The notes: a model not told the origin generated them from the sequence alone. A stretch of DNA of 64,000 nt from Candidatus Omnitrophota bacterium (GCA_016180575.1 JACPAY010000006.1:10165-74164), one strand, 5' to 3'; positions 71-43,806 are shown, counted from the first letter of the stretch. Numbers and translations: made by a program.

Positions 71-823
71 TCACCTGCGCGGCGTCCGCAGCAGCAGCCA
101 GCCGCCAAAGACGAACACCGCGATGCTGATCACTTGCTGGAGCGTCAGCCCCATCCACCAGGGTGACTGGTCTCCCCGCGTGAACTCGAGGGCAAACCGC
201 AGGACCGCGTACCCCGCCAGGTAGGCCCCGAACACCCGTCCGGGATATTGTAGCAGACTGGGCCGCTGCAGCGCCCGGAGGATGCAATACAGCAGCAGGA
301 GCCCAAGGGATTCGAGGAGCTGGGTGGGAAACACCGCACGACTCTGGCCGGGGAACGTGAGGCCGCACCAGGCGTCCGTCGGTTTCCCGTAGCAGCAGCC
401 GTTCAACAGGCAGCCGGCCCGCCCGATGGCGTGGCCCAGCGCCCCGAACGGGATGAACTGGTCAAGCACCCGCAGGAACTCCAACCGCTGCGCCCGCACG
501 TAGAGCGCGCCGCCAATCAAGCCGCCCAGGAACCCGCCATACCACACGAGGCCGCCGTGCCACACGGCCAGGATCTCCAGCGGATCGCTCGAAAAGTCGT
601 CCCAGTGCAGCGCCACGAAGAGCGCCCGCGCCCCCACGAGGCCGCCCACCAGCGACAGGCTGGCGAAATCCAGGAGCTGGTCGGCTCCAATCGCCCGCAA
701 CGTGGGGGGCAGCTGGCGAGCCGCTCGTGCGGCCAGCCACGTTGCCGTCACGAACGCCAGGACCAGCATGGCCCCGTAGGAATAGAGCGTCAGCGGCCCC
801 ACTTGGAAAAGGATCGGGTGCAT
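71..823 (-). CDS. lgt: prolipoprotein diacylglyceryl transferase
   Basis: 250-aa polytopic membrane ORF with Lgt-type motifs (WHGGLVWYGG, GRAGCLLNGCCYGKPT). Directly follows lspA. Confidence 0.9.
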   Translation of the reverse strand: MHPILFQVGPLTLYSYGAMLVLAFVTATWLAARAARQLPPTLRAIGADQLLDFASLSLVGGLVGARALFVALHWDDFSSDPLEILAVWHGGLVWYGGFLGGLIGGALYVRAQRLEFLRVLDQFIPFGALGHAIGRAGCLLNGCCYGKPTDAWCGLTFPGQSRAVFPTQLLESLGLLLLYCILRALQRPSLLQYPGRVFGAYLAGYAVLRFALEFTRGDQSPWWMGLTLQQVISIAVFVFGGWLLLRTPRR

Positions 824-852: not shown

Positions 853-1287
853 TCAACGTTTCGTTGCGAGGGCGCGCCAGATGAGGAGGGCGACGCCGAT
901 GGTGATCGCCGAATCGCCGAGGTTGAAGACGGGCCAGACCCGCACGTCGATGAAATCGACCACGTAGCCGAATCGCAGCCGGTCAATGAGGTTGCCGGCC
1001 GCCCCGCCGAGCACGAGGGCGTAGGCCCACAGGGCCGTCGCGGTCAGGGGGCGCTCGGCGAGGAACTGTCGGGCAATCCAGGCGATGACGGCGAGCGACA
1101 GGACGATGAAGAGGACCTGCGCGCCCTTGAGGAGGCCGAACGCCGCGCCGGTGTTCTGGACGTACGTGAGATGGAGGGCGCCAGGCACGAGCGGCAGGCT
1201 CTCTCCGGGATGGAATGCGGCGGCCACGACGAACTTGGTGAGCTGGTCAACCGCTAGGATGAGCCCCGCGATCAGCCACGGCCGCAT
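853..1287 (-). CDS. lspA: lipoprotein signal peptidase II
   Basis: 144 aa with LspA motifs (NTGAAFG, GGAAGNLIDR, VDFIDV, FNLGDSAI). Confidence 0.9.
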   Translation of the reverse strand: MRPWLIAGLILAVDQLTKFVVAAAFHPGESLPLVPGALHLTYVQNTGAAFGLLKGAQVLFIVLSLAVIAWIARQFLAERPLTATALWAYALVLGGAAGNLIDRLRFGYVVDFIDVRVWPVFNLGDSAITIGVALLIWRALATKR

Positions 1288-1357: not shown

Positions 1358-1741
1358 TCAGCGCTTGCTCTTCTGCTCTTTGGCGCGCTGGCAGGTGATG
1401 CACAGCGACGCGTAGGGCACCGCCTTGAGGCGGCTCATGGTGATCGGGGTGTTGCACTGCTGGCAGATCCCGTACGAGCCGTCGTCGAGCCGCTTGAGCG
1501 CATCGTCGATCTGGTAGAGGATCCGCTGCTCGCTGGAGACGAGGTCCATCGAGAGCTCGCGCTCGTAGGTGTCGGCCGCCATGTCCGCCATGTGGACCGT
1601 GTAGGCGGAGAGATCCCCCGAGGCCTCGCGGGGGCTGGTGGACGCGTCGCGCGCGATAGACTTGATCTCATCCGCCAGCTTCGCCCGCTCGGTGATGAGG
1701 AGTTGCCGGAACTGCTTGATCTGCTCCTTGGTCAAGGCCAT
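1358..1741 (-). CDS. DksA/TraR-family C4 zinc-finger protein
   Basis: 127 aa. Coiled-coil N-terminal half plus a C-terminal CQQC...CITC zinc finger. Confidence 0.8.
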   Translation of the reverse strand: MALTKEQIKQFRQLLITERAKLADEIKSIARDASTSPREASGDLSAYTVHMADMAADTYERELSMDLVSSEQRILYQIDDALKRLDDGSYGICQQCNTPITMSRLKAVPYASLCITCQRAKEQKSKR

Positions 1742-1751: not shown

Positions 1752-4526
1752 TCACTTCGTGCGCTCCATCACGACGCGCGCGCATCGCTCGCACAGCCCC
1801 GGATGCGCCGCCTGCGACCCCACGCTGCCCAGGTGCTTCCAGCATCGCTCGCACTTCTTCCCTGGCGCGCGCTCGACCGTCACCCGGACCGGCGAGCCTT
1901 CACCCGATGGGGCGCCGTCCCGCTGGATCTCCACCCCGGAAACGACGAACGCCTCGGCCAGCGTCTCGCGGTGCGCCTCGCACCATTGCCGGAAGTCCGG
2001 CTCGCCCACCGCCAGGGTGACCCGCGCCTCCAGGGGGCTGCCGATGACGCCGCGGCCCCGCTGTTCCTCCAGCGCCTTCATGACGGCCTCCCGCATCGAG
2101 AGGACCGCCGCCCATCGGCGCTCGCCGTCGCCATCCAGCCGGCGCTGGAGCCCCGCGTCCCATGTCGCCAGGTGCACCGACGGTTCCTGGACCCAGCCGG
2201 CGCCCCGCATGAGCTGCCACACCTCGTCGGTCGTCGCGACCAACACCGGCGCCAGCGCCCTCACGAGGGCGCTCAGTATATCATACAAGACCGTCTGCGC
2301 ACAGCGGCGCTTGGCGAGGGCCGTCGCCTCGGTGTAGAGCCGGTCCTTCAAGGCGTCGAGGTAGAACGCGGAGAGATCGAGCACGCAATACTGGTAGATG
2401 ACCCGCACCAGCTCATGGAACTGGGAGGTTTCATAGGCGGTGGTGGCCGCCTCCCAGACCTCCCAGGCCCGATGGAGCGCCCATCGGTCCAGCTCCGTGG
2501 CCTGCGATGGGTCCGCCCGGTCCGTGCGCGGGTTGAAGTCGTAGAGGTTCGCCAGCAGGTAGCGAAAGGTGTTCCGGAGCTTGCGGTACGACTCGGCCAC
2601 CTGGACGAGGATCGCCTCGGAGAGCCGCACATCCTCCCGGTAGTCGCAGGACGCCACCCAGAGGCGCAGGATGTCAGCCCCGTAGCGCTCCATGACCTCC
2701 TGGGGCGCGACGACGTTGCCCAGGCTCTTGGCCATCTTGCGCCCTTCTCCGTCCACGACGAAGCCGTGGGTGAGCACCTGCTCATACGGCGGCTGTCCAT
2801 GCAGCGCGACCGAGGGGATGAGCGAGACCTGAAACCATCCGCGGTGCTGGTCCGAGCCTTCCAGGTAGAGCTGGGCCGGCCAGGCGAGGTCCTTGCGCGT
2901 CTTGAGGACCGCCTCGTGGCTGACGCCGGAGTCGAACCACACATCGAGGATATCGGGGTCCTTGCGCAGCTTCCCTCCCCCGCACTTCGGGCAGCGCGCG
3001 CCGGGCGCCAGCTCCTCGGGCGAGGCGGTGAACCAGCTTTCGATGCCGTGTGACGCCAGGAACTGCTCGATGCGTTGGATGACGGCGGGATCGTCAAGTG
3101 GTGTCTCGCACGCCTGGCAGTGCAGCACCGGGATCGGTGTCCCCCAGTAGCGCTGGCGGGAGAGGCACCAGTCCGGACGGCTCTCCAGCATCCCGGCCAT
3201 CCGGTTTGCGCCGGCCGGGGGGATCCACGTCACGCCGCGCGCGGCCTCGAGCAGCCGCCGGCGCAGCCCCTGTTGCTCGACGCTGAGGAACCACTGCGGC
3301 GTCGCGCGGAAGATGACCGGCTCCTTGCACCGCCAGCAGTGCGGGTAGGAGTGGGTGATCGGCTCCTCGGCGAGCAGCAGGCTCCGCCGGCGCAGGTCCT
3401 CCACGATCTTCGGATTGGCGTCGAACACCCGCTGTCCCTTGAACTGCGGGATGTCGTCGGTGAACTTTCCCTGATGATCGACGGGAGAGAGCGTCTCGAG
3501 TTTCTCGCGCTGGCCGATGACGTAGTCCTCATGGCCGTGCCCCGGCGCGATGTGGACGATCCCGGTGCCCTCGGTCAGGCTCACCCCTGCATCGGTCACG
3601 CCCACCGACTCGCTCCCAAAGGGCCGCTGGCAGACGAGGCCTCGCAGCGTCTTCCCCTCGACCGACTGGACCGTCTTGATGAGCTCGAGCCCCATCTTTG
3701 CCAGCACGGCCTCAGCGAGATCAGCCGCAAGGACAAGGCGCTTCGCTTCGCCGCGCGTCGTCTTCGCGAGGACCAGTGAGTAGCTGGCCTCCGGATGGAA
3801 ACACAGCGCGACGTTGGCCGGCAGCGTCCAGGGCGTCGTCGTCCATGCCACCACGCTTGCCCCATTCCACTCCCCTCGCATGATGGGAAACTCCAGGTAA
3901 ATCGAGGTGTCCTGGCGGTCGGCGTACTCGACCTCGGCCTCGGCGAGCGCGGTCTCGCAGGCGGCGCACCAGTAGACCGGCTTCTTGCCTCGATAGATGT
4001 AGCCGGCCTGCACCAGCTCCCGGAAGACGCGGAGGATGGTCAGCTCATAGTCCGGCGCCATCGTCAGGTAGGGGTGGCCCCAGTCGCCCAGCACGCCGAG
4101 CCGCTTGAACTGCTCCCGCTGGATGTCGACATAGCGCTGCGCGTACGCCCGGGCCTTCTGCCGGAACTCGCCCTGCTGGATCTCGTGCTTCGTCTTGCCC
4201 AGCTCCTTGAAGAGCTGGTGCTCGATGGGCATCCCGTGGCAGTCCCAGCCCGGCACGTAGGGGGCGTCGAAGCCCCGCATCGTCTTGTAGCGGACGATGA
4301 GGTCCTTGAGGATCTTGTTGAGCGCGTGGCCGATGTGGATGTCGCCGTTGGCGTAGGGCGGCCCGTCGTGGAGGATGAACCGCGAGGCCCCATTGCGCGC
4401 CTTGCGGATCTCGGCGTAGAGGTCCATCGCCTGCCACCGCGCGAGCGCCTCAGGCTCCCGCTTGGGCAGCTCCGCCTTCATGGGGAAGCTGGTCTTCGGG
4501 AGGTTGAGCGTCGCTTTATAATCCAT
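1752..4526 (-). CDS. ileS: isoleucyl-tRNA synthetase
   Basis: 924 aa. Class I HIGH (PYANGDIHIGHA) and KMSKS (GRKMAKSLGN) motifs, editing-domain region, C-terminal Cys-rich zinc-binding tail. Confidence 0.95.
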   Translation of the reverse strand: MDYKATLNLPKTSFPMKAELPKREPEALARWQAMDLYAEIRKARNGASRFILHDGPPYANGDIHIGHALNKILKDLIVRYKTMRGFDAPYVPGWDCHGMPIEHQLFKELGKTKHEIQQGEFRQKARAYAQRYVDIQREQFKRLGVLGDWGHPYLTMAPDYELTILRVFRELVQAGYIYRGKKPVYWCAACETALAEAEVEYADRQDTSIYLEFPIMRGEWNGASVVAWTTTPWTLPANVALCFHPEASYSLVLAKTTRGEAKRLVLAADLAEAVLAKMGLELIKTVQSVEGKTLRGLVCQRPFGSESVGVTDAGVSLTEGTGIVHIAPGHGHEDYVIGQREKLETLSPVDHQGKFTDDIPQFKGQRVFDANPKIVEDLRRRSLLLAEEPITHSYPHCWRCKEPVIFRATPQWFLSVEQQGLRRRLLEAARGVTWIPPAGANRMAGMLESRPDWCLSRQRYWGTPIPVLHCQACETPLDDPAVIQRIEQFLASHGIESWFTASPEELAPGARCPKCGGGKLRKDPDILDVWFDSGVSHEAVLKTRKDLAWPAQLYLEGSDQHRGWFQVSLIPSVALHGQPPYEQVLTHGFVVDGEGRKMAKSLGNVVAPQEVMERYGADILRLWVASCDYREDVRLSEAILVQVAESYRKLRNTFRYLLANLYDFNPRTDRADPSQATELDRWALHRAWEVWEAATTAYETSQFHELVRVIYQYCVLDLSAFYLDALKDRLYTEATALAKRRCAQTVLYDILSALVRALAPVLVATTDEVWQLMRGAGWVQEPSVHLATWDAGLQRRLDGDGERRWAAVLSMREAVMKALEEQRGRGVIGSPLEARVTLAVGEPDFRQWCEAHRETLAEAFVVSGVEIQRDGAPSGEGSPVRVTVERAPGKKCERCWKHLGSVGSQAAHPGLCERCARVVMERTK

Positions 4527-4535
4527 GCGGGAACT

Positions 4536-4838
4536 TCAGCGGATCCGGGCGGCGATGTCGATGAGCGAGTTGACGAGGAAGAGCCGCATGAACCAGATGG
4601 CGAAGAAGACGAGGATGGGCGAGAGGTCCATCATCCCGACCATGGTGAACGGCAGGCGGCGCCGCACCCATGCGAAGACCGGCTCGGTCGCCGAGCGCAG
4701 GAACCGGATGATCGGGTTGTAGGGATCCGGGTTGACCCAGGAGATGAGCACCGCGACCAGGACGACGAAGCTGTAGATCTGCAGGAGCCGGTCGAGGATC
4801 AGCGCGACCGCCTGCAGGAAGTTTCCGAGGATGAACAT
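4536..4838 (-). CDS. yggT: YggT-family membrane protein
   Basis: 100 aa, YggT-like (LISWVNPDPYNP...). GGAGG Shine-Dalgarno 6 nt upstream of the ATG. yggS-proC-yggT synteny. Confidence 0.8.
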   Translation of the reverse strand: MFILGNFLQAVALILDRLLQIYSFVVLVAVLISWVNPDPYNPIIRFLRSATEPVFAWVRRRLPFTMVGMMDLSPILVFFAIWFMRLFLVNSLIDIAARIR

Positions 4839-4851: not shown

Positions 4852-4890
4852 CGGTATCAGATACCGTTACCCGATTGGTATCTGATACCG
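4852..4890. repeat. hairpin repeat CGGTATCAGATACCG / GGTATCTGATACCG (family 2)
   Basis: Inverted arms separated by ~10 nt. The right arm supplies the last codons (..SRYQIPIG) and lies beside the proC stop. The same arm sequence recurs at 59601-59650. Confidence 0.85.
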
Positions 4891-5730
4891 ACTGCTCAAT
4901 TCTCTCGAGCGGCGGGCGGCGGCCCGGAGCGCCTCGGCGAACTGCGCCGGCATGCGCCGTCTCGCCAGCACCTTGAGCGCCGCCTCCGTCGTGCCGCCCT
5001 TGGACGCGACCTTGGCGATGAGCGCCTCGGCCGGCTCGCCGGATGCCAGCAGCAGCCGCACGCTGCCCTCCAGCGTCCGCCGGACCGCCTCGGACGCCGC
5101 GGCCCGCGGCAGCCCAAGCTTCCTTGCCGCCTCTTCCCAGATGCGGGCGAGATAAAACACGTAGGCGGGGCCCGAGCCGCTCACCGCCGTGACCGCGTCC
5201 AGCTGCCGCTCCGGCAGCTCCACGACCGTCCCCACCGCGCCGAACAGCGCGCGGGCCATCGCCCGGTGGCGCCGCGTCGCGGTCCGACCCGCCGCCAGCG
5301 CCGCGAACCCGCAGCCGACCGTCGCCGGCAGGTTGGGCATGACGCGGACGAGCGGCACGCCCGGCAGCCGGACCTGCAGCCAGCGCAGCGTGATGCCGGC
5401 GGCGATGGTGACGACTAGCGGCCGGCTTGCCCCGCCACCACGTGTGGTGGCGGGGCGGGTGAGGTGCCGCGCAAGCGGCGGCACCGCCTCAGGAAACTGC
5501 TGCGGCTTCACCGCGAGGATGACAAGGTCCGACCGGCGCGCGACCTCACGGCCATCCGCCTCCACCGGCAGGCGGAAGCGGCGCTCAACCAGGCGCCGCG
5601 TCTGGGGATTCGCGTCGGCCACCCGCAGCGCGCGCCGCGGGATGCCCTGGGCGAGCAGTCCCCTGAGCAGCGCCTGTCCCATCGTCCCGGCGCCGATGAT
5701 CCCAATCGTCAACCCGCGCAGGACGCCCAT
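4867..5730 (-). CDS. proC: pyrroline-5-carboxylate reductase
   Basis: 287 aa. N-terminal GxGxxG (IGIIGAGTMG) and a P5CR C-terminal domain (GGTTEAAL). Confidence 0.9.
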   Translation of the reverse strand: MGVLRGLTIGIIGAGTMGQALLRGLLAQGIPRRALRVADANPQTRRLVERRFRLPVEADGREVARRSDLVILAVKPQQFPEAVPPLARHLTRPATTRGGGASRPLVVTIAAGITLRWLQVRLPGVPLVRVMPNLPATVGCGFAALAAGRTATRRHRAMARALFGAVGTVVELPERQLDAVTAVSGSGPAYVFYLARIWEEAARKLGLPRAAASEAVRRTLEGSVRLLLASGEPAEALIAKVASKGGTTEAALKVLARRRMPAQFAEALRAAARRSRELSSRYQIPIG

Positions 5731-6446
5731 GTCCCCTGTCCCTTGTCTCCTGTCCCAAAAATGGCCGTTCCCACTCGCACGAGGTCCGCCCCCTCCTCGA
5801 TGGCGACCTCGAAATCCTGGGACATCCCCATGGAGAGCTGCCCCGCGGCGGGCGGCAGGCCGCAGGCGGCCAGCACCTCATCGCGGAGCTGGCGCAGCCG
5901 GCGGAAGTGCGGCCGGACGTCTTCAGGGTTGTCGACGAACGGGGCGATCGTCATGAAGCCTCGCAGCGTCAATGCCGTGGACCGCTGGACCGCGCGGGCC
6001 AGTCCCGCGGCGTCCTCCGGACGGCAGCCGAACTTGGCGGGCTCGCCCGAGACGTTCACCTGGATGAGCACGTCAAGCGGTTTGGGGCGCGCCTGGCTCA
6101 ACCGGTTGAGCGTCTCGACCAGCGCCCACGAATCCACCGAATGGATGACATCAAAGAGCTCCAGGGCCAGCTTGGCCTTGTTGCGCTGCAGGTGGCCGAT
6201 GAGATGCCAGCGCGCTGCCTGCCGGTCGCCGAGCGCCGCGCGCTTCACGCGGGCCTCCTGGACGCGGTTTTCCCCCACGTCGGCGAGGCCGAGCCGCACC
6301 GCCTCCCGGACCGCCTCAGCACTGATCCCCTTCGCGACCCCGACCAGCGTCACCGCCGTCTCGGGGCGGCCCGAGCGCCGTGCCGCCGCCTGCATCCGCT
6401 GCCGCACGAGGTCCAACCGGTCTCGCAGTCCGTCGGGGGAAGACAC
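5709..6446 (-). CDS. yggS: PLP-binding YggS-family protein (alanine-racemase-fold)
   Basis: Conserved VGVAKG Lys, HLIGHLQRNKA, LSMGMSQDFEVAIEEGADLVRVGTAIFG. The ORF-track N-terminus (to 6716) crosses the REP hairpins, so the GTG at 6446 (VSSPDGL...) was chosen. Confidence 0.85.
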   Translation of the reverse strand: MSSPDGLRDRLDLVRQRMQAAARRSGRPETAVTLVGVAKGISAEAVREAVRLGLADVGENRVQEARVKRAALGDRQAARWHLIGHLQRNKAKLALELFDVIHSVDSWALVETLNRLSQARPKPLDVLIQVNVSGEPAKFGCRPEDAAGLARAVQRSTALTLRGFMTIAPFVDNPEDVRPHFRRLRQLRDEVLAACGLPPAAGQLSMGMSQDFEVAIEEGADLVRVGTAIFGTGDKGQGTWASCAG

Positions 6447-6489
6447 GCCGGGTACTCTAACACAGCGACTTGCGAGGGTCAACGACTGG

Positions 6490-6539
6490 GAAAAGTACCG
6501 GGTACTTCTCAAAGCAGAAAAAGTACCGCGTACTTTTTC
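6490..6539. repeat. REP doublet (two AAAAGTAC-NNN-GTACTTTT hairpins)
   Basis: GAAAAGTACCGGGTACTTCTC (6490-6510) and GAAAAAGTACCGCGTACTTTTTC (6517-6539), about 140 nt upstream of the RAYT gene. Confidence 0.85.
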
Positions 6540-6678
6540 TGGTGCGGGAGTCGGGTCTGGTATTATACAATAAGTTGGTTTCGGGTCTCCCTTCCGTACC
6601 ACGCTCCCATCAGACCCTCCGTTGTCGCTGCTGCCCAAAGTAGCCGGTATTTTTGGGTTGATGAAAGGGGGGGTTGGA

Positions 6679-7374
6679 ATGCCACGGCGCCATCGAGACT
6701 GGCTTCCAGGAGGCATCTACCATATCACTGTGCGAGGGAATAATCGTCAAGCTATTTTCCTCGACGACATCGACTACCAGCAATACCTCCTGGAACTTCG
6801 TCGCAGTCGGGACGAATACCCCTACCGACTTTTGGCGTTCGCGTTGATGCCGAATCACGTGCACCTGGTCATGGAGGCCTTGCCGGATGCCTGCCTCTCT
6901 GACGTCATGCATCAGGTGGGTAAGAGCTACACGCGCTACTTCAACGGACAGCACGATCGCGTCGGCCATTTGTATCAGGGCCGCTTCTACAGCAACCTGG
7001 TCAATCGAGAATCTTATCTGCTCGAGGTCACCCGTTACGTCCACCTCAATCCATTTCGAGCAAGCCTTGTGCGCCGACCTGCCGAGTACCTCTGGAGCAG
7101 CTATCGCACCTACCTTGGGCTGGAGCGTGATCTGCTGGACCTCGTGAGCCCTCAACGAATTTTGGAGTTGTTCGGCACTACGTTTGCCGAACAGATTGAG
7201 CGATACCGAAGCTTTGTCGAGCAGCTTGTAACCGAGGAGGAGAAGGCGCGGGCGTGGCTACGGAAGTTGTACCGCGAGAAGCTGATCCCCCCACAACGCT
7301 GGCTCTTTCCTCGACCATCACCTCAAAAAGTACCGGGTACTTTTTCCGCTTTGGGAAGTACCCGGTACTTTTAG
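6679..7374 (+). CDS. REP-associated tyrosine transposase (RAYT; IS200-like Y1/HUH transposase)
   Basis: HUH motif MPNHVHLVM and catalytic Tyr context TRYVHLNP. ATG at 6679. The C-terminal 17 codons run through the downstream REP doublet. The only clear plus-strand gene in the window. Confidence 0.8.
   Translation: MPRRHRDWLPGGIYHITVRGNNRQAIFLDDIDYQQYLLELRRSRDEYPYRLLAFALMPNHVHLVMEALPDACLSDVMHQVGKSYTRYFNGQHDRVGHLYQGRFYSNLVNRESYLLEVTRYVHLNPFRASLVRRPAEYLWSSYRTYLGLERDLLDLVSPQRILELFGTTFAEQIERYRSFVEQLVTEEEKARAWLRKLYREKLIPPQRWLFPRPSPQKVPGTFSALGSTRYF
7324..7374. repeat. REP doublet (inverted pair)
   Basis: CAAAAAGTACCGGGTACTTTTTC (7324-7346) and GGAAGTACCCGGTACTTTTAG (7354-7374). The loop is CGG in one and CCG in the other, i.e. 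opposite orientation. Overlaps the RAYT and ftsA stop codons. Confidence 0.85.
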
Positions 7375-8507
7375 AAATACTCGGTGAGGATGGTGCGGGT
7401 GCGGTCGATCAACCGGTTGAAGAGATGCGCGGAGCGAAGTGCTGTGCGCCCATCGCCCCGGGTCGCCAGCTCCAGGAGGCCGATGGCGGCGCTCAGGCCC
7501 ACCTGGCGGCCGAGGTCCGCCGCTTGGCTCATGCGCGCGCTGCGCCCCACCGACGTGGGGATGCCGACGGCCCGCTCCACCCACTCGGCGAAGCCGTCAA
7601 GCAAGGCGCCCCGTCCGGTCACGAGGACCGCGTCCGGCCGCGGGCCCTCCTGGAGGAGCTGCTCAAGCGCCGGCTTGAGCAGGCCCCAGTGCTGCTCGAC
7701 GAGGGTGCGCACCGCCGGCTTGCGGCAGGCGGCGCCCTCCAGGCTCCAGGCCAGCGCCTGCTCCATCGTCGCCTTCAGCTCATTCGCGATGGCGGACGCG
7801 AGCTTGAGGCCGCCCCAGGGGAGGACGTGGGCCGCGTGCAGCGCGCCTTCGACGAAGAGCCCAAGGTCGGTCGTCAGACCGCCGACGTCCATCACGACGA
7901 CGCGCTGGTGTCGGAGCTCCTCGTCCGCCAGGCCGGCCAGCGCCGCGGGGAGCGTGTAGGTGATTCGGGACACCTCGAGGCCCGCGGACTCCACCGCCTG
8001 AATCAGCGTGCGGCGGGCCGCCATCGGGATGGTGATCACGTGGACCGTGCCGAGCAGCCGGGTCGCGGACAGGCCCCGCGGGTCGCGCACCCCGGTGAAG
8101 CCGTTCCCGTCGCAGCCGAGCCGCTCGATGAGGAGCGGGTCCCGGTCGACTCCCAGCACCTGATGGAGGGCGCTCGCATGCAGGCGCTCGAGATCCTGCG
8201 CCCGCACGGGGACCGGCTCATCGCCCAGCGCCACCGCCACGCGCGCCCGCTCGCTCGCCAGCGCCGGGTGGCTCGCGGTGACGAGCGCGCGGTCCATCTC
8301 CGCCTGCACCGCGGTCGCCTCCAGGGCCTGCTCGATCGTCCGGCTGACGAGCAGCGGGTCGCCGAGCCAGACCTCGGAGAGCGCGGGGTACGGGACGAGG
8401 CTCGTGCCCAGGAGCTCGAAGCCCGCGGCGTGCTCATGCGGCAGGCCGATCGCGCAGGCGACTTTCGTGGAGCCGATGTCCAAGGCGATGAGCGGGCGGG
8501 CGGTCAT
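7371..8507 (-). CDS. ftsA: cell division protein FtsA
   Basis: 378 aa actin-like ATPase (LIALDIGSTKVACAIG, VVVMDVGGLTTD). Follows ftsQ. Confidence 0.9.
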   Translation of the reverse strand: MTARPLIALDIGSTKVACAIGLPHEHAAGFELLGTSLVPYPALSEVWLGDPLLVSRTIEQALEATAVQAEMDRALVTASHPALASERARVAVALGDEPVPVRAQDLERLHASALHQVLGVDRDPLLIERLGCDGNGFTGVRDPRGLSATRLLGTVHVITIPMAARRTLIQAVESAGLEVSRITYTLPAALAGLADEELRHQRVVVMDVGGLTTDLGLFVEGALHAAHVLPWGGLKLASAIANELKATMEQALAWSLEGAACRKPAVRTLVEQHWGLLKPALEQLLQEGPRPDAVLVTGRGALLDGFAEWVERAVGIPTSVGRSARMSQAADLGRQVGLSAAIGLLELATRGDGRTALRSAHLFNRLIDRTRTILTEYF

Positions 8508-9331
8508 CAGGTGCGGGGGTGGATCACCGGCTCCTGAAACCGCACGTCGATGTAGCCGACGTCAACGGGATGCCGGGCGATCACCCTCAACGCCGCCTGC
8601 AGCCGCGAAAGGTGGGCGCTCAGTTCGGCCTCCGAGCCGCAGCGCACCTCGGTGTCCCCATCGAGGAGGAACCGGATCTGCTGCGGGTCCGACACGTTCA
8701 GCTCCTTGAGGCGCCGCGCGATCGCCGGCGCTTCGCGGCGCAGCGACACCGCGACGCGCAGGGCGAGCTTGAGCCGCTCATCGGCGTTCTCCCGTCCCGC
8801 CCGCAGCGCGGCGGTCCCGGCCCCGAATCCGACCACGCGGAGGAGGCTGTCGGCGGGCTCGGCGCGGCCATCCGGGAGGATGAACCCGTCGCGGTCCACG
8901 GGATACCAGCGGCCTGCCTGCGCCGCGGACGCGGCAGGCAGGTCCAGGCGCACCTGCGCGACCGGCAGGCGCGGCACAAGCTCCAACCGAAGCGTGTCGG
9001 GCAGCCGCCGCACCACGCGGACCTGCTTCATGCCCGGCTGCTGCCGCGTGACCTCATCAGCGAGGAGGCGCAGATCCAGCGTGAGCAGGTTCTTCCCCAT
9101 GAGCGACTCCGTCACCCGGAGGGAGGAGTCCGCGGGAAGCTCCACGTGCGCGACGCGGAAGATGTCGGCGCGCTGCGCGTACTGGCTCATCCCCCACAGG
9201 CCGGCTGCCAGCCCGCTGACCGCGAGGAACGGCCCCGGATGCGTCAGCGCCCAGCGCGCCGCCGTCCAGACCGCGCGGCCCGCGCTCGGGAAGAGCCCGA
9301 TGATCCGCCGCCTGCGCCGTCGTTTCGCCAT
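8507..9331 (-). CDS. ftsQ: cell division protein FtsQ
   Basis: 274 aa. Basic N-terminus, one TM helix, POTRA-like region (FRVAHVEL...). Position between ddl and ftsA. Confidence 0.8.
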   Translation of the reverse strand: MAKRRRRRRIIGLFPSAGRAVWTAARWALTHPGPFLAVSGLAAGLWGMSQYAQRADIFRVAHVELPADSSLRVTESLMGKNLLTLDLRLLADEVTRQQPGMKQVRVVRRLPDTLRLELVPRLPVAQVRLDLPAASAAQAGRWYPVDRDGFILPDGRAEPADSLLRVVGFGAGTAALRAGRENADERLKLALRVAVSLRREAPAIARRLKELNVSDPQQIRFLLDGDTEVRCGSEAELSAHLSRLQAALRVIARHPVDVGYIDVRFQEPVIHPRT

Positions 9332-9335: not shown

Positions 9336-10295
9336 CTACCGCGAAGCGGCCGCGTGGGGGACCCCGCGCGCCGCCATCAGGACGAGCTGCTCGCACAGCT
9401 CATCGTAGAAAAGCTTGACGCAGGCCGCCGCCTTCGGCAGGAGGCTGGTCGGGGTCAGCCCCGGAATCGTGTTGACCTCGAGGACGACGGGGACGCCGTC
9501 GGGGCGCAGGATGAAGTCTGTGCGCGAGAGGTGCCGGCAGCCCAGCGCCCGATGGGCCGCAAGGCCCGCCGCCTGGACCGACGCGGCGGCCTCCGGCGGA
9601 AGCGGCGCCGGCACAAGATACTCGGTCGCGCCGGGGGTGTACTTGGCGGTGTAGTCGAAGAAGGGGTGGGTGGGACGGACCTCGATGACGGGCAGCGGAT
9701 CCTCGCCGAGCACGCCTACGGTGACCTCGCGCCCCGCCACGAATTCCTCCACCAGGATCGCCGGCCCATACCGGCCCGCCTCGGCGAGCGCGGCCGGCAG
9801 CTGCTCTTCCCTGCCGACGATGGACACCCCGAGGCTCGACCCTTGGCTGACCGGCTTCACGACAAGGGGGTAGGCGCATCGAATCAGGCGGACCGGCTGC
9901 GCTGAGCCGTCGAGGAGTTCCCAGCGCGGGACCGCCAGGCCCGCCGCGGCGAACCGTTTCCGCGAGGCCACCTTGTCGATCCCCAGGCGGCTGGCGCGGG
10001 CGGTCGAACCGGTGTAGGGGACGCGGAGCTCCTCGCAGAGCGACTGGATGGTCCCGTCCTCTCCGAACGGCCCGTGCAGGGCGAGGAACGCCACCTCGGC
10101 GCCGCAGGCCCGCAGCGCGTGCCGGGCCGCCTCGCAGGCCTCGTCGGCGGTGGACGCCTTGGGGATCACGATCGGCTCGACCGGCCAGCCGCGGCGCGTC
10201 AGCGCCTCGACGACGCCCTGGCCGCTCTTCAGCGACACCTCGTGCTCGCCCGAGGGTCCGCCCATCAGCACCGCGACCTTCAGCGAACCGCGCAT
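9336..10295 (-). CDS. ddl: D-alanine--D-alanine ligase
   Basis: 319 aa ATP-grasp protein (VAVLMGGPSGEHEVSL, LHGPFGEDGTIQ, LEVNTIPGLT). Confidence 0.9.
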   Translation of the reverse strand: MRGSLKVAVLMGGPSGEHEVSLKSGQGVVEALTRRGWPVEPIVIPKASTADEACEAARHALRACGAEVAFLALHGPFGEDGTIQSLCEELRVPYTGSTARASRLGIDKVASRKRFAAAGLAVPRWELLDGSAQPVRLIRCAYPLVVKPVSQGSSLGVSIVGREEQLPAALAEAGRYGPAILVEEFVAGREVTVGVLGEDPLPVIEVRPTHPFFDYTAKYTPGATEYLVPAPLPPEAAASVQAAGLAAHRALGCRHLSRTDFILRPDGVPVVLEVNTIPGLTPTSLLPKAAACVKLFYDELCEQLVLMAARGVPHAAASR

Positions 10296-11197
10296 CAGCC
10301 GAGCCGCTCGCCGATCATCCGGACCTCCGGCTCCAGGGTGACGTGGAAGACCTGCCGGACGCGCCGCTGGATGTGCTCCATGAGCGAGAGGACGTCATCG
10401 CAGGTCGCCCGGCCGAGGTTCACGATGAAGTTGGCGTGCCGCGAGGACACCTGCGCATCCCCGATGCGCGCGCCCTTCAGGCCGGCCTGGTCGATGAGGC
10501 GCCCTGCGCCTGTGCCGGGCGGGTTCTTGAAGGCGCAGCCCGCCGACGGCAGCCGGACCTCCTGCGTGCTGTTCCGGTAGGTCAGCGTCTGGCGGATGCG
10601 CTCGTAGGCCTCGGCCGGCGGCACCTTCGGGAACTGCAGCACCACCTCCGTGATGATGCCGGGCGCAAGCGCCGTGTACCGGTAGCTGAACCGCAGCCGC
10701 TCCCGGGGGACCTGCCGCACCGTCCCGTCGGGGGCGACCAGGCTGAGCTGCCGGATGAACCGTCCGATCCCCTGCGCGTTCATGGCCACCGCCCCGCCGA
10801 GGTGGCCGGGCAGCCCCGCGAGCGTCTCCAGGTCGCCCCAGCCGTGCCGCGCGGCGAGATACACGAGCCGCTGCGTCAAGAGCGAGGCGCCGCAGACGAG
10901 CGTGGCCGTCGGGGAGTCGGGGTGGCTCACATCCTGCACCGTGCGGAACCCGCGGCCCAGGTGGACGACGAGGCCGCGGATGCCGCGGTCCGCGGCGAGG
11001 GTGTTGGTCCCGCCCCCCACCACGGACACCGGCAGGCCCCGGACTGAGGCCTCCCGGAGCACCTCGACCAGCTCCTCCACCGTCGCGGGCTCGGCGAACC
11101 ACTCCGCCGGGCCCCCGATGCGGAAGCTCGTGTGGTCAGCCAGCGATTCGTGCCGGCGTACGCAAGCGTGCGGCCACGTCATGGCACAGCTCTCCAA
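10295..11197 (-). CDS. murB: UDP-N-acetylenolpyruvoylglucosamine reductase
   Basis: 300 aa with an FAD-binding domain (FRIGGPAEWF, VVGGGTNTL) and a MurB C-terminal domain. The start may be the internal ATG at 11182. Confidence 0.9.
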   Translation of the reverse strand: MESCAMTWPHACVRRHESLADHTSFRIGGPAEWFAEPATVEELVEVLREASVRGLPVSVVGGGTNTLAADRGIRGLVVHLGRGFRTVQDVSHPDSPTATLVCGASLLTQRLVYLAARHGWGDLETLAGLPGHLGGAVAMNAQGIGRFIRQLSLVAPDGTVRQVPRERLRFSYRYTALAPGIITEVVLQFPKVPPAEAYERIRQTLTYRNSTQEVRLPSAGCAFKNPPGTGAGRLIDQAGLKGARIGDAQVSSRHANFIVNLGRATCDDVLSLMEHIQRRVRQVFHVTLEPEVRMIGERLG

Positions 11198-12527
11198 TGT
11201 CTCCCGCTCCGAGGAAGAAGATCGTGTCGCCGGAACGGGCGATCCGCGTGACGAACACGGGCAGCTCCTGCTTCGAGACGTAGCGGACGCACGGGTGGCC
11301 GTGGGCCTTGATGAGGCCGGCCAGCCGCTCGCCGGAAATCCCCGGGATGGGGGATTCGAACGCCGGGTAGATGTCCGTCACGATGACCCCGTCGGCCCGG
11401 TCGAAGCACGCGGTGAGCTCCCGCTCGAGCGACTGCGTGCGGGAAAACCGGTGCGGCTGAAACACCACCACGCGATGGCGCTCCGGCAGCGCGTCTGCGG
11501 CGAGCGTCGCCTGGATCTCGGAGGGGTGGTGCGCGTAGTCCTCCACGAACCAGATGTCGCCCGGCAGCCGCACGACCTGGAAGCGGCGCCCCGTGCCCTG
11601 GAACCGCCGCAGCGATTCCCGGATGGTGACGAGCGGCAGCTCCAGGGTGAGCCCCAGGCTGATGACGGCCAGCGCGTTGAGCACGTTGTGCCGCCCCGGC
11701 ACCTGGAGGGCGAACGTCCCCAGCGATCGGCCGCGGAACGCCGCCCGGAACCGGCTGCCGAACCCGTGCAGCTCGACATGAGTCGCCGTCACCTCGGCGC
11801 CCGGCCCGAAGCCATAGCTCACCTGCGAGGGATGGGAGAGCCGCTCCCGGACGACCGGGTCATCGGCGCAGCGGATCAGCGTCCCGCCCGGCTGCAGGCG
11901 GCCGACGAACTGCTCAAACGCCTCGACCAGCCGCGCGAACGTCCCATAGTAGTTCAGGTGCTCGCGGTCGATGTTCGTGACGATCGCGATGTCGGGGGCG
12001 AGGTGCAGGAACGACCCGTCCGATTCATCGCTTTCCGCGACGAGGTACGCGCCGGCGCCCGAGCGGGCATTGGTGCCGAGCGAGAGCACGATCCCGCCGA
12101 CGACGACGGTGGGATCCCACCCGGCCTGGATCAGCAGCTGGGAGGCCATGCCGGAGGTGGTCGTCTTCCCGTGGGCGCCGGCCACCGCCACCAGGCGCCG
12201 CTCGGCGGCAAGCGCCGCCAGCAGCTCGCCGCGCGTGATGGTGCAAAGCCCCGCCGCGCGCGCCTCGAGCAGCTCAGGCTCCTGCCCCGATATGGCGGAG
12301 CTGTGGACGACGAGGTCGAACCCTCCGCCCACGTGCTCGACCGCGTGGCCCGCCAAGACGGTCGCGCCGCTCCGCTGGAGCCGCTCGATCGCGCCGTTTC
12401 GCTTCGCATCGCATCCCGACACCGCGCAGCCGCGCTCGAGGCAGATCGCGGCAAGGCCGCTCATCCCGATCCCGCCGATGCCGAGGAAGTGGAGGCGCAT
12501 GCCTGGGGTGATGCGCGGGAGGCTCAT
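11136..12527 (-). CDS. murC: UDP-N-acetylmuramate--L-alanine ligase
   Basis: 463 aa Mur ligase (HFLGIGGIGMSGLA, AGAHGKTTTS). Confidence 0.9.
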   Translation of the reverse strand: MSLPRITPGMRLHFLGIGGIGMSGLAAICLERGCAVSGCDAKRNGAIERLQRSGATVLAGHAVEHVGGGFDLVVHSSAISGQEPELLEARAAGLCTITRGELLAALAAERRLVAVAGAHGKTTTSGMASQLLIQAGWDPTVVVGGIVLSLGTNARSGAGAYLVAESDESDGSFLHLAPDIAIVTNIDREHLNYYGTFARLVEAFEQFVGRLQPGGTLIRCADDPVVRERLSHPSQVSYGFGPGAEVTATHVELHGFGSRFRAAFRGRSLGTFALQVPGRHNVLNALAVISLGLTLELPLVTIRESLRRFQGTGRRFQVVRLPGDIWFVEDYAHHPSEIQATLAADALPERHRVVVFQPHRFSRTQSLERELTACFDRADGVIVTDIYPAFESPIPGISGERLAGLIKAHGHPCVRYVSKQELPVFVTRIARSGDTIFFLGAGDIGELCHDVAARLRTPARIAG

Positions 12528-13651
12528 GCGGGACCTTCCGTTCCCCGCCCGACGTCGAGGATCATTTCGGTGAGCCGCTCCGTGGCGTCAGCGCACTGCA
12601 GCCCCTGAACCTGGGCGCCCATCATGCTCCGCAGCCGCCCGTCCGCCAGGATGGACCGCATCACGGACAGCAGCCGTTCCGGGGTCGCCTCCGGCTCTTC
12701 GAGCACCACCCCGCCGCCGATCGCCTCCACGAGCCGCGCATTGGCCCGCTGGTGGCCGCCCGCAAACGGATAGGGGATGAGGACCGCGGGCTTCCCGCAC
12801 CGGGCCAGCTCCGCGACCGTCGAGGCGCCCGCCCGGGCGATGACCAGATCCGCCTGGGCGTAGGCCGCTTCCATCTCCACAAGCGAAGGCGCCACCCAGG
12901 CGGCCACGCCGGCTGCTGCGTAGGCGTCGGCGACCGCCTCCTCATCGGTGGCCCCTGTCAGATGGATGACCTGCCAGGTCCGCCGCTCGTCGGGTGAAAG
13001 CCCGGCCGCGACAGCCATCATGAGCCGATTGAGCGTCCGCGCGCCCTGGCTGCCGCCGAGCACCAGCGCCGTCGGCCGCGCCGGCTCCAGGCCGAACCGC
13101 GCCGCTCCGTCCGCCCGCGAGACACGGCCGATGCGGTTGCGCACCGGCAGGCCCGTGACCACCGCCGGCGCCCCGTCCAGCGCGCGCTGGGTCTCAGGGA
13201 AGGACACGGCGACGCGGTCCGCCCACCGCGTGAGCCAGCGGTTCGCCCGCCCCAGCATGACGTTTTGCTCATGGAGCATGCAGCTGATGCGGCGCATCCG
13301 GGCCGCCAGGATCACCGGGATGGACACCCATCCCCCGAACCCGACCACCACGTCAGGCGTGAAGGCATCGAAGCCCCGCTGCGCGAGGCGCCAGATCCGG
13401 CCGCACTGCCGCAGCCGCCCCAAGGGGAAGGCCGTTGACGCGACCGGGATGGGGTCGACGCTCACGTCGGCGCGCCGCGCTTCCTCGATCAGGGTTCGGG
13501 CGAGCGGCGCCGCCTGCCGGCGCTGCGCGTACCAGACCGTGGCGCGCGCCCCCCGCCTGGCGAGGGCCGTGGCGGCTTCCAGCGCGGGGATCAGGTGGCC
13601 TCCGCTGCCGTCAGCGATCAAGAGCACGCTCAACGGATGCCCGTTCTCCAT
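12524..13651 (-). CDS. murG: UDP-GlcNAc:lipid I N-acetylglucosaminyltransferase
   Basis: 375 aa GT28 protein (ADGSGGHLIPALEAA). dcw position. Confidence 0.9.
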   Translation of the reverse strand: MENGHPLSVLLIADGSGGHLIPALEAATALARRGARATVWYAQRRQAAPLARTLIEEARRADVSVDPIPVASTAFPLGRLRQCGRIWRLAQRGFDAFTPDVVVGFGGWVSIPVILAARMRRISCMLHEQNVMLGRANRWLTRWADRVAVSFPETQRALDGAPAVVTGLPVRNRIGRVSRADGAARFGLEPARPTALVLGGSQGARTLNRLMMAVAAGLSPDERRTWQVIHLTGATDEEAVADAYAAAGVAAWVAPSLVEMEAAYAQADLVIARAGASTVAELARCGKPAVLIPYPFAGGHQRANARLVEAIGGGVVLEEPEATPERLLSVMRSILADGRLRSMMGAQVQGLQCADATERLTEMILDVGRGTEGPA

Positions 13652-14726
13652 GCCGGCTCCCCTGAAAGATCAACGCGCAGGCGATCAGGTTGATCGCCAT
13701 GGACGTGCCCCCGTACGACATGAGCGGCAGCGGCAGCCCCTTCGTGGGCAAGAGGCCCGTGACGACCGCGATGTTGATGATCGCCTCCAGCCCGATCATC
13801 CCCACGAGGCCGCACACGAGGTACTTGCTGAAGAGGTCCTGGGCCGCCACGGCGATCCGGAATCCGAACAGCAGGAAGAGCGCCAGCAGGAGGAGGACGG
13901 CGGTGGTCCCGAGGAGCCCCAGCTCTTCCCCGACGATGGCGAAGAGGAAGTCGGTGTGGGCGCCCGGCAAAAAGAACAGTCGCTGCAGCGACCCCCCGAT
14001 ACCCACGCCGAGCAGCCCGCCGCTGGCCAGGGCGAAATACGACTGGAGGATCTGATAGCCGCTGCCGAGCGGGTCCGCCCATGGGTCGAGGAAGGCGAGG
14101 ATCCGCCGCCGGCGGTATTCCGCGCCCGCGATCAGGACCATGAGCACCGCGAGGGCCACGGCCGCGACCGCTGCCAGGTGCTGCCAGCGGGCCTTCGCGA
14201 CGTAGAGGAGCAGCATCGAGACCGCCCCCATCGCGATGGTTGTCCCCAGGTCCGGCTGAATCAGGACCAGACCCGCCATCAGGCCGGTCGCGAGCAGGGG
14301 CGGCAGCAGGCCGCGCCAGAAGTGCTGCAGCTCGCCGGTCCGGCGGGCGAGCAGGTCCGCGAGATACAGGACGAGGGAGAGCTGCGCCAGCTCCGACGGC
14401 TGGAGGCTCCACCGCCCGATCCGGAACCACCGCCTGGCGCCGCTGACCTCCGGGCCGAGCAGGAACACCAGGACCAGCGAGATGACGCTGAAGACGAACA
14501 GCCACCGCCCGGCCCGGCGGAGCTGCGGGTACGGAATGGCGAGGCACCCCAGCGCCAGCGCCGCCCCGCAGGCGATCGCGATCAGGTGGTGCAGCAGGAA
14601 CCTGAGGCTCGCGCCGTAGGTCGCCGCGGCGGCCATCGCGCTCGCCGAGTAGACGGCCACCAGCCCCAAGCCGAGCAGCGTCAGGATGACGACCAGCAGG
14701 CACCGCCGCAAGGTCCTCGGGCTCAT
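13611..14726 (-). CDS. ftsW: SEDS-family lipid II flippase/peptidoglycan polymerase FtsW
   Basis: 371 aa, about 10 TM helices, FtsW/RodA motifs (QPSELAQL, HTDFLFA, LPTKGLPLPLMSYGGTS). Confidence 0.9.
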   Translation of the reverse strand: MSPRTLRRCLLVVILTLLGLGLVAVYSASAMAAAATYGASLRFLLHHLIAIACGAALALGCLAIPYPQLRRAGRWLFVFSVISLVLVFLLGPEVSGARRWFRIGRWSLQPSELAQLSLVLYLADLLARRTGELQHFWRGLLPPLLATGLMAGLVLIQPDLGTTIAMGAVSMLLLYVAKARWQHLAAVAAVALAVLMVLIAGAEYRRRRILAFLDPWADPLGSGYQILQSYFALASGGLLGVGIGGSLQRLFFLPGAHTDFLFAIVGEELGLLGTTAVLLLLALFLLFGFRIAVAAQDLFSKYLVCGLVGMIGLEAIINIAVVTGLLPTKGLPLPLMSYGGTSMAINLIACALIFQGSRHGERASVERALDR

Positions 14727-14763: not shown

Positions 14764-16080
14764 TCATGGAGCGGTCATGGTCCTCACGATGGCCTTGAAG
14801 GCCCTTCCCCTCTCCTCGAAGTCGCGGAACATGTCGAAGCTGGCGCAGGCGGGCGAGAAGAGGATGGTCGTGCCGGGGGCGGCGAGCTCCGCCGCCGTCC
14901 GGACCGCCTCCTCGAGCGTGCCGCGCTCCCTCACGATGGTGGAGCCGTTCAGCAGCGGGCGCAGCCGCGCCCGCACCTCCCCGATGAGCACGATGCCTTT
15001 CACGCGCTCCTCATGGAGCCGCGCCGCCAGCCCGGAGAAGTCCAGTCCCTTGTCGCGCCCCCCGACGATCACCACGATCTGGCCGGGGGTCTGCGACAGC
15101 GCGTAGAGGGTGCTCTCGGGCGTCGTGGATTTGGAGTCGTTGATGAAGTGGAGCCCCCGAAGGGTGGCCACGCGCTCCAGCCGGTGCTCGAGGCCGGGGA
15201 AGGCCCGGAGCACCTGCCACGCCAGCGGGTCGGCAATCCCCGAGAGCCGCGCGACCTGCAAGACCGCCTGGGCGTTGTCGGTCAGCGCCCGCCGCGTTTC
15301 CGGCGCGAGGCGAAACGCCGGGGGGTTCGACCCGCCGTCGCCGAACCAGATGCGTTGGGCGTGCAGCCGCTCGCCGAGCGCCGCGATGCGGGGGTCGGAG
15401 CCATTGAGCACCGCCCAGTCCGCCGGGGTCTGGCGCGTGAAGAGCCGCGCCTTCGCCGCCAGGTAGGCGGAGGGGTCGGGATGGCGGTCCAGGTGGTTCA
15501 TCCCGATGTTCAGGAGGACGCCGACCCTCGGCCGGAACCGCTCGCAGCCCAGGAGCTGGAAGGAGCTGACCTCGACGACGGCCACCGCATCGGACGCCAA
15601 GCGGTCGAGGACGGAGGCAAACGGCGTGCCGATGTTGCCGCAGGCGACGGCCGGCCGGCCGGCGGCGCGCAGCACCTCCGCGATGAGCGACACCGTGGTG
15701 CTCTTGCCGTTGGTGCCGGTCACGGCGACGATCGGCGACCGGCAAAAATGGAAGGCGAGCTCGATCTCGCTGATGACGGGGACGCCGCGCTCCTGGGCCC
15801 ATCGGAGCGGGGACGCCGTCTCCGGGACGCCGGGGCTGGCGACCAGCAGGTCCGCGCCTTCCAGCGCCTCACGCGAATGTGCGCCGAGCTCGACCCGCTC
15901 GGCGCCCAGCCCAAGCAGCGCGGCCTGCGCGGCCCGGAGGTCATCGCTCTCGCGGGCATCGGTCGCCTGCACCCGCGCGCCGACGCGGCAGAGCAGGCGC
16001 GCGGCGGCCAGACCGCTGCGGCCGAGGCCCACCACCCCGACGCGGCGGCCGGACCAGGAACGGCCGAACACGTCGCTCAT
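14764..16080 (-). CDS. murD: UDP-N-acetylmuramoylalanine--D-glutamate ligase
   Basis: Start ATG at 16080 overlaps the mraY stop (ATGA). MSDVFGRSWSGRRVGVVGLGRSG..., VTGTNGKSTT. The ORF-track extension to 17016 is a shadow over mraY. Confidence 0.9.
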   Translation of the reverse strand: MSDVFGRSWSGRRVGVVGLGRSGLAAARLLCRVGARVQATDARESDDLRAAQAALLGLGAERVELGAHSREALEGADLLVASPGVPETASPLRWAQERGVPVISEIELAFHFCRSPIVAVTGTNGKSTTVSLIAEVLRAAGRPAVACGNIGTPFASVLDRLASDAVAVVEVSSFQLLGCERFRPRVGVLLNIGMNHLDRHPDPSAYLAAKARLFTRQTPADWAVLNGSDPRIAALGERLHAQRIWFGDGGSNPPAFRLAPETRRALTDNAQAVLQVARLSGIADPLAWQVLRAFPGLEHRLERVATLRGLHFINDSKSTTPESTLYALSQTPGQIVVIVGGRDKGLDFSGLAARLHEERVKGIVLIGEVRARLRPLLNGSTIVRERGTLEEAVRTAAELAAPGTTILFSPACASFDMFRDFEERGRAFKAIVRTMTAP

Positions 16081-23352: not shown

Positions 23353-23390
23353 CGGCCATCCTATCGCCTAGACCCTGAGGCGTTAGAAGT

Positions 23391-27504: not shown

Positions 27505-27505
<1 letters not shown>
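26621..27505 (-). CDS. tyrosine recombinase, XerC/XerD type
   Basis: 294 aa. N-terminal SAM-like domain plus catalytic R...HxxR...Y (HTLRHSFATHLL, LGHANISTTQRYTHV). Confidence 0.85.
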
Positions 27506-30874
<3,369 letters not shown>

Positions 30875-43541: not shown

Positions 43542-43558
43542 ATGTTCATTTAATAGGC

Positions 43559-43760: not shown

Positions 43761-43806
43761 TGCGATACGATACTATCATATGTGTTCTCATGTGTCGATA
43801 TCAATT

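Follow-up and report, generated by a model that had tools for sequence, protein, structure and literature searches.

An intact division and cell wall cluster that ends at ftsA, and a remodelled FtsA, in a Candidatus Omnitrophota genome

FtsZ is nearly universal in bacteria, which raises the question of how peptidoglycan-walled cells divide without it. Here, we report on a 64,000-nucleotide stretch of a Candidatus Omnitrophota bacterium genome (GCA_016180575.1, JACPAY010000006.1:10165-74164), referred to below as the window, with positions counted from its first letter. In this window the division and cell wall (dcw) cluster is complete from mraZ to ftsA and stops there; the canonical slot of ftsZ, between ftsA and yggS, does not contain the gene. 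The empty slot is a lineage trait and not a local event, and genuine loss of ftsZ is the favoured reading. The window very probably represents the Omnitrophota, of the Planctomycetes-Verrucomicrobia-Chlamydiae (PVC) superphylum, and within them the high-GC groundwater order UBA9649 or 'Aquiviventales', as part of a phylum that lost ftsZ ancestrally. The absence of ftsZ in Omnitrophota is a published phylum-level trait, not a new one, and has not been widely absorbed. The remodelling of the retained FtsA in this FtsZ-less background, seen in its sequence and predicted structure, is the part possibly worth following up.

Results

The ftsZ slot in the window

Family searches recovered the full dcw cluster on the minus strand, from 23367 to 7371, in the order mraZ-mraW-ftsL position-ftsI-murE-murF-mraY-murD-ftsW-murG-murC-murB-ddl-ftsQ-ftsA; ftsA is the last gene, and the terminal ftsZ of a canonical cluster is missing. 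Because yggS occupies 5709-6446 and ftsA 7371-8507, both on the minus strand, the spacer that forms the canonical ftsZ slot (6447-7370) is exactly 924 bp long. The features of this region, including a REP-associated tyrosine transposase (RAYT) and its repetitive extragenic palindromes (REPs), are as follows.

5709-6446, minus strand: yggS, of the pyridoxal phosphate-binding YggS family, GTG start (TIGR00044, 173.6 bits, cut-off 106)
6491-6544, no strand assigned: REP doublet, left arm of the RAYT cassette; a 54-nt arm, 89% complementary to 7319-7372
6636-6652, no strand assigned: fifth REP copy, degenerate, with two mismatches, just upstream of the RAYT start
6679-7374, plus strand: RAYT, 231 aa (NF047646 REP_Tyr_transpos, 93.2 bits, cut-off 80)
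7319-7372, no strand assigned: REP doublet within the 3' end of the RAYT reading frame, which makes up the right arm of the cassette
7371-8507, minus strand: ftsA, divergent, 378 aa (PF14450 and PF02491)
8507-9331, minus strand: ftsQ (PF03799 and PF08478)

Querying the whole 64 kb by tblastn with FtsZ from E. coli and B. subtilis and SepF from B. subtilis returned nothing better than E = 2.7. A profile hidden Markov model (HMM), made from 57 FtsZ proteins out of other loci and run on the six-frame translation, gave no match in the window at E <= 10, as against 1e-154 to 1e-179 in control loci, and Pfam and NCBIfam scans of almost all open reading frames (ORFs) in the window identified no tubulin, SepF or Min family. 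Decayed remains of ftsZ in the ftsA-yggS spacer are likewise ruled out, as neither tblastn nor the FtsZ HMM found any there. These searches uphold the preliminary description of this stretch, which had read mraZ through ftsA as all present, the cluster as stopping at ftsA with no ftsZ in its canonical slot, and yggS, proC, yggT and ileS as the next same-strand genes (each now supported by a family match). The same description reported no sepF, which holds within the 64 kb; SepF occurs mainly in Terrabacteria, and bacteria in this part of the tree are expected to lack it (Pende, 2021).

The slot across related loci

The corresponding region was compared in 26 related loci, 21 from the high-GC clade of the window and five from more distant Omnitrophota (FtsA identity about 25-100%, GC 40-71%). 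By tblastn and the FtsZ HMM, ftsZ was found within up to 10 kb of ftsA in none of the 21 high-GC-clade loci and in none of the five distant ones, and the HMM returned nothing better than E = 0.49 over about 400 kb of related loci. Among out-group loci, tblastn placed ftsZ directly after ftsA in 61 of 65, and three of the four exceptions end less than 1 kb from ftsA. The fourth (L044), in a Fimbriimonadales metagenome-assembled genome (MAG; JAXLTH010000038.1, ftsA 3947-4732), is the sole out-group locus that lacks ftsZ in spite of ample sequence (10 kb) downstream of ftsA, and may be a case of ftsZ sited elsewhere in Armatimonadota.

Most related loci pass directly from ftsA to yggS, with no RAYT between them. 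The order ddl-ftsQ-ftsA-yggS-proC-yggT-ileS-dksA-lspA-lgt is common to nearly all loci of the clade; in relatives from groundwater metagenomes, whose FtsAs are 59-63% identical to that of the window, it is seen from ftsQ to lgt with a gap of 46-66 bp between ftsA and yggS, again with no RAYT. The ftsA-yggS synteny without ftsZ extends to a member with 44% FtsA identity (52% GC) and to one with 33% (L087, 66% GC), whose protein is annotated as an FtsA of 'Ca. Omnitrophica' and whose locus still has the gene order from ddl to lgt. In a 46%-GC Omnitrophota MAG (L090), ftsA is followed by yggS-proC-PNP-ileS-dksA-lspA-lgt, also with no ftsZ. The slot is equally empty where other genes follow ftsA, as in locus L016 (lipid-A/Lpt genes, tig and clpP) and in a 40%-GC Omnitrophota MAG (L091, gltB).

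Placement of the window and distribution of its FtsA

In NCBI, the window FtsA has an identical entry, HYT90_02840, under the label 'Candidatus Omnitrophica bacterium'. Its close homologues number more than 200, nearly all of them 375-380 aa in length. A scan of one genome per species recovered this FtsA variant in 14 GTDB species (51-92% identity), beyond which only canonical FtsAs appeared, from many phyla and at 22-30% identity. A HMMER search of 1.84 billion representative proteins similarly returned 26 representatives of the variant family at E < 1e-30, followed by canonical FtsAs at 1e-23 and weaker. The nearest FtsAs of canonical length are also from Omnitrophota, and the C-terminal ...[DE]YF is common to both groups.

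The 14 species include SBAZ01 (L020), which has the clade-specific FtsA and the synteny in common with the window. This genus is classified as p__Omnitrophota;c__Koll11;o__UBA9649;f__UBA9649 in GTDB, and as Aquiviventia/Aquiviventaceae in the naming of the survey that lists it, beside genus 2-02-FULL-67-20 (Seymour, 2023; PMC10066038), a placement that fits the high GC and groundwater origin seen here. The NCBI label of the identical protein, the FtsA variant and synteny shared with SBAZ01, and the affiliation of the nearest canonical-length FtsAs all place the window in Omnitrophota. Ten window ORFs that otherwise lacked an assignment were scanned against NCBIfam, and neither of the PVC markers TIGR04137 and TIGR04138 turned up.

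Genomes of this clade have been deposited under two names, 'Candidatus Omnitrophota bacterium' (several submitters) and 'Planctomycetales bacterium' (third-party annotation, TPA, co-assemblies, Bin_23_1_1), as seen in records L014, L015, L019, L020 and L021. NCBI labels for the lineage with the FtsA variant are therefore inconsistent.

A retained and remodelled FtsA

The ftsA product matches PF14450 (FtsA; 40.1 bits, cut-off 31.8) and PF02491 (SHS2_FTSA; 31.4 bits, cut-off 25.4). An AlphaFold2 model of the protein has a predicted local distance difference test score (pLDDT) of 87.8 and a predicted template modelling (TM) score of 0.85; when this model was searched with Foldseek, the top 15 matches were all FtsA (TM 0.66-0.79, the best at 0.78-0.79), with PilM lower, at 0.57-0.68. 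Searching PDB sequences with phmmer matched FtsA only (7Q6G, 7Q6D, 7Q6F) plus, weakly, EutJ. By Pfam and Foldseek, the protein has the actin-like fold of the acetate and sugar kinase/Hsc70/actin (ASKHA) superfamily with the FtsA-specific 1C (SHS2) subdomain. An alternative identity as PilM is ruled out by the Foldseek ranking, the SHS2_FTSA domain and the position of the gene after ftsQ.

The gene is under purifying selection and is not decaying; the ratio of nonsynonymous to synonymous substitution rates (dN/dS) is 0.17 against a 92%-identical relative. The last 15 residues of the protein, NRLIDRTRTILTEYF, are near-invariant in the family and align with the membrane-targeting helix of E. coli FtsA. 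The hydrophobic moment of this tail is 0.55, compared with 0.57 for the E. coli helix, and the AlphaFold2 model places a helix at residues 360-377. The window FtsA is accordingly predicted to carry a C-terminal amphipathic membrane-targeting helix. It resembles the canonical FtsAs of E. coli and T. maritima (7Q6D, 4A2A) in this helix, in fold (TM 0.72-0.79), in the 1C/SHS2 subdomain and in its place after ftsQ.

The region that in canonical FtsAs faces FtsZ is, in contrast, substantially altered. The window FtsA was aligned with that of E. coli and with 12 further FtsAs of canonical type, nine of the 12 from out-group loci with ftsZ directly after ftsA. In the segment equivalent to E. coli residues 257-290, which forms the S12-S13 hairpin of subdomain 2B, canonical proteins have 34 residues and those of the clade 10, so that about 24 residues are gone over the hairpin of the window FtsA; in the AlphaFold2 model, residues 233-286 are built of three helices, with no strand. 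E. coli R300 and E303 are kept without exception in canonical-type FtsAs (13 of 13), and their counterparts in the window FtsA are H273 and L276. Across the FtsA clade, the R300 position is occupied by H, Q, E or A and the E303 position by L, S, A and others. The window protein thus lacks both the subdomain 2B hairpin and the conserved Arg/Glu pair. In FtsAs of low-GC Omnitrophota an intermediate state is seen, in which the hairpin is kept and S, K, A or Q already stands in place of R300. The S12-S13 strands are described as essential for the FtsA-FtsZ interaction in a passage of PMC4281207 that cites deletion analyses, and the FtsZ tail is held by FtsA through salt bridges (PMC3418248).

Nucleotide-binding motifs are also changed. 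The phosphate-2 motif is DxGG[L/C/T] throughout the clade, compared with DxGGGT in canonical proteins (DVGGLTTD in the window, residues 207-214, for canonical DxGGGTxD), and the adenosine motif is TGRGALLDG ('GRGAL', with an invariant Arg; residues 296-305) in place of TGGxA ('GGxA'). These substitutions suggest that ATP binding or hydrolysis by the variant may be altered. The phosphate-2 motifs of low-GC Omnitrophota FtsAs are yet more degenerate (e.g., DIREDTTE, DVGMGLTE). The NCBIfam equivalog TIGR01174 scores 92.5 bits against the window FtsA, below its cut-off of 175.85 and with only residues 6-251 aligned, because the hairpin is reduced and both R300/E303 and the nucleotide motifs are changed. 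Compared with the canonical FtsA-FtsZ proto-ring, the window FtsA is one without a partner ftsZ in its cluster, without the S12-S13 hairpin, without R300/E303 and with changed nucleotide motifs.

A transposase cassette in the spacer

As the preliminary description had stated, the 924-bp gap holds only an opposite-strand RAYT and its REPs, which the NF047646 match and the mapping of the repeats now substantiate. The transposase carries an HVH (HUH) motif and a YVHLNP tyrosine motif; of its 231 aa, about 90 at the C-terminus fall outside the family model. The REP sequence (AAGTACCSGGTACTT) occurs five times, at 6493, 6521, 6638, 7328 and 7356, with no copy elsewhere in the window and none in shuffled sequence. 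A transposase of the family with inverted REP doublets on both sides identifies the cassette as a RAYT/REP element. In its HUH and tyrosine motifs and its inverted doublets it resembles known RAYT or TnpA-REP elements (IS200/IS605-related). Unlike these, it is present as one cassette with no dispersed REPs in the 64 kb, and its ORF reads through the right-hand REP doublet to overlap the ftsA stop codon by its final 4 nt, the two genes being convergent.

In the 92%-identical relative (L008), the ftsA-yggS spacer is about 117-140 nt long and contains no RAYT. Homology between the two loci is lost at precisely the stop codon of ftsA (7371) and picked up again at 6466, which marks the cassette of about 0.9 kb as a private insertion in a spacer that was short. 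RAYT is absent from L008 and from all other relatives examined, and the cassette (6467-7374) apparently reflects a single, recent, strain-private insertion. The absence of ftsZ is unconnected with it; where relatives lack RAYT, ftsA and yggS are separated by only 46-550 bp.

Other genes of the window

The window has a GC content of 68%, and its minus strand holds nearly all genes. The remaining genes of the dcw cluster and of the block downstream of yggS, all on the minus strand, are listed below. Start codons in the block from murD to ftsI (14764-21682) are approximate and were placed by gene lengths in relatives.

22915-23367, minus strand: mraZ (Pfam)
21995-22900, minus strand: mraW/rsmH (Pfam)
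21687-21995, minus strand: 102-aa ORF in the ftsL position, no family match
19967-21682, minus strand: ftsI (Pfam)
about 18478-19971, minus strand: murE (Pfam)
17063-18514, minus strand: murF (Pfam)
about 16077-17070, minus strand: mraY (Pfam)
about 14764-16120, minus strand: murD (Pfam)
13611-14726, minus strand: ftsW (Pfam)
12524-13651, minus strand: murG (Pfam)
11136-12527, minus strand: murC (Pfam)
10295-11197, minus strand: murB (Pfam)
9336-10295, minus strand: ddl (Pfam)
4867-5730, minus strand: proC (TIGR00112, 238 bits)
4536-4838, minus strand: yggT (PF02325, 66.6 bits)
1752-4526, minus strand: ileS (TIGR00392, 916 bits)
1358-1741, minus strand: dksA/traR-type zinc-finger protein, 127 aa (PF01258)
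853-1287, minus strand: lspA (family search)
71-823, minus strand: lgt (family search)

The dksA/traR-type protein, encoded between ileS and lspA, is the best conserved of this block, at 76-88% identity where FtsA shows 51-68%. Its gene keeps its position in almost every related locus that is long enough, down to the 46%-GC Omnitrophota MAG.

Pfam and NCBIfam matches elsewhere in the window include a xerC/D-type recombinase, ligA, znuA with an ABC-3 permease, riboflavin genes, SMC, fabF-acpP-fabG and a type II secretion/pilus-like cluster with a secretin. This family content, the secretion cluster with its secretin included, indicates that the organism is a diderm. The secretin (49473-51290, minus strand) has a weak C-terminal TonB_C-like match at residues 540-604 (21.9 bits, below cut-off), a combination that would be unusual if real. 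An ORF resembling IS1-family transposases (42714-43541, minus strand; NF033558, 74.6 bits, below the cut-off of 100) sits in a poorly coding region of 2.4 kb between ribBA and smc (42584-45041), which also holds a truncated-looking ORF for an HtrA/DegP-type protease (44133-44969).

Four minus-strand ORFs (27505-28050, 32987-34291, 34360-34656 and 56855-57271) have no Pfam or NCBIfam match and a gene-like codon bias (GC at third codon positions, GC3, of 0.73-0.93); among them, one beside znuA encodes a protein of 434 aa, and one that lies between ligA and the gene for the xerC/D-type recombinase encodes a protein of 181 aa.

Discussion

Probable loss of ftsZ and its alternatives

Genuine loss of ftsZ is supported because the slot is empty in 26 of 26 related loci while ftsZ is present in 61 of 65 out-group loci, because two independent surveys of Omnitrophota report no ftsZ, and because the retained FtsA has lost the experimentally defined FtsZ-docking hairpin. 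In one of these surveys, Omnitrophota lack ftsZ with a single exception, 89% identical to an archaeal protein, and also lack ftsY and ribosomal protein L30 lineage-wide (Seymour, 2023, Nat Microbiol, Suppl. Note 1; PMC10066038). In the other, Omnitrophica are grouped with Planctomycetes and Chlamydiae as FtsZ-less phyla, and three of five Omnitrophica genomes are tabulated with FtsA and without FtsZ (Pende, 2021, Nat Commun). An earlier study had found FtsZ in 'Omnitrophica bacterium OLB16' only (Rivas-Marin, 2016).

The window resembles these FtsZ-less Omnitrophota in phylum, in the lack of ftsZ within its 64 kb and in the retention of FtsA with a full peptidoglycan and dcw gene set, and one genome in those surveys shares its order, UBA9649/Aquiviventales. 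It differs from them in the additional, private RAYT/REP insertion in the slot. Both surveys give presence and absence only; the ftsA-yggS architecture and the remodelling of FtsA are not described there. The preliminary description had set relocation of ftsZ beside genuine loss and had held that loss would be notable. The loci, the surveys and the missing FtsA hairpin favour loss, while its novelty does not survive the published record.

That record is itself inconsistent. Omnitrophota without FtsZ are reported in PMC10066038, while papers of 2025 (PMC12673574, PMC12283558) imply that Planctomycetes stand alone or that the Omnitrophota dcw cluster is conserved; according to one 2025 review, no free-living bacteria other than Planctomycetes lack FtsZ.

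Several points weigh against loss in this genome and against the account of FtsA built on it. The argument from R300 and E303 depends on these residues being FtsZ contacts, as reportedly found by Pichoff and Lutkenhaus in 2007 and by Szwedziak in 2012. The absence of ftsZ from this genome is deduced from relatives and from the literature, the stretch read being 64 kb of it, and surveys based on MAGs can miss genes. OLB16 has both FtsA and FtsZ (Pende, 2021), and the dcw genes of Omnitrophota are 'highly conserved' according to Henriques (2025), with ftsZ not singled out; the supplements to that paper contain no Omnitrophota rows.

An ordinary ftsZ elsewhere in the genome, outside both the window and the dcw cluster, is improbable. 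Against such a gene stand two independent surveys of Omnitrophota that found none, one of which includes an SBAZ01 genome with the same FtsA variant, and a working FtsA-FtsZ pair is hard to square with the loss of the docking hairpin and of R300/E303. Relocation does draw on the limited reach of the window, on lineages in which ftsZ lies apart from ftsA (e.g., the Fimbriimonadales locus L044, with none within 10 kb of ftsA), and on the placement of Omnitrophota among phyla that conserve dcw genes (Henriques, 2025).

Somewhat less probable again is that FtsZ has been replaced by a very divergent tubulin/FtsZ-like or other cytoskeletal protein that still works with FtsA. Divergent FtsZ and BtubA/B are known from PVC bacteria, and the four window ORFs without a family could in principle encode such a protein. 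The FtsZ HMM, however, found nothing in the window or, at better than E = 0.49, in the related loci, and nothing new stands beside ftsA in relatives, where the spacers measure 46-550 bp.

Repeats such as those of the RAYT/REP element are classic break points of short-read assembly, but a mis-join there that dropped ftsZ in assembly or binning is very improbable and is in effect excluded, because an independent Logan assembly contig (L001) reproduces the ftsA-RAYT junction at 100% identity; ftsZ is also missing from 25 other loci of unrelated samples, none of which has RAYT, and within the window the REPs are confined to the surroundings of RAYT.

A putative FtsZ-independent FtsA

Under the favoured reading of genuine loss, ftsZ would have been lost at or near the base of Omnitrophota. 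The dcw cluster would have stayed intact and come to abut the yggS-proC-yggT-ileS block; that the cluster ends at ftsA and runs into this block would thus follow from ancestral loss in the phylum. FtsA may then have been kept for an FtsZ-independent role, putatively as a membrane-tethered scaffold. In this capacity it would recruit or activate FtsQ, the product of the ORF in the ftsL position, and the septal peptidoglycan synthases FtsW/FtsI. The FtsZ dock on FtsA would have become dispensable and decayed, and would later have been excised in the high-GC lineage.

The FtsA of Omnitrophota may, on this account, be a natural 'FtsZ-orphan' FtsA, an actin-like protein that has long worked without its tubulin partner and whose FtsZ dock decayed stepwise; we advance this tentatively, at slightly less than even likelihood. 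A stepwise course is suggested by the difference between low-GC loci, in which R300 is gone and the hairpin kept, and UBA9649, in which the hairpin is deleted.

Other FtsZ-less members of the PVC superphylum offer a comparison. Planctomycetota and Chlamydiota have likewise lost ftsZ and kept many dcw and peptidoglycan genes (Phycisphaerae, Brocadiia, Planctomycetales, Chlamydia). Unlike the window lineage, these groups have, with few exceptions, lost ftsA too, and their dcw clusters are fragmented, whereas that of the window is intact and contiguous from mraZ to ftsA, with ftsA under purifying selection.

The absence of ftsZ here is a further example of a published and under-appreciated Omnitrophota trait. 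If the account given above for FtsA is true, a membrane-tethered FtsA alone would organise septation driven by FtsQ/FtsW/FtsI, and this would be a third solution to division without FtsZ, beside those of Chlamydia and Planctomycetes, of which we found no description in the literature. The lineage is useful in this respect for its intact, contiguous dcw cluster, its retained FtsQ/FtsW/FtsI and its selected FtsA with a cleanly excised hairpin, and the window FtsA offers a concrete protein with which to test FtsZ-independent FtsA function.

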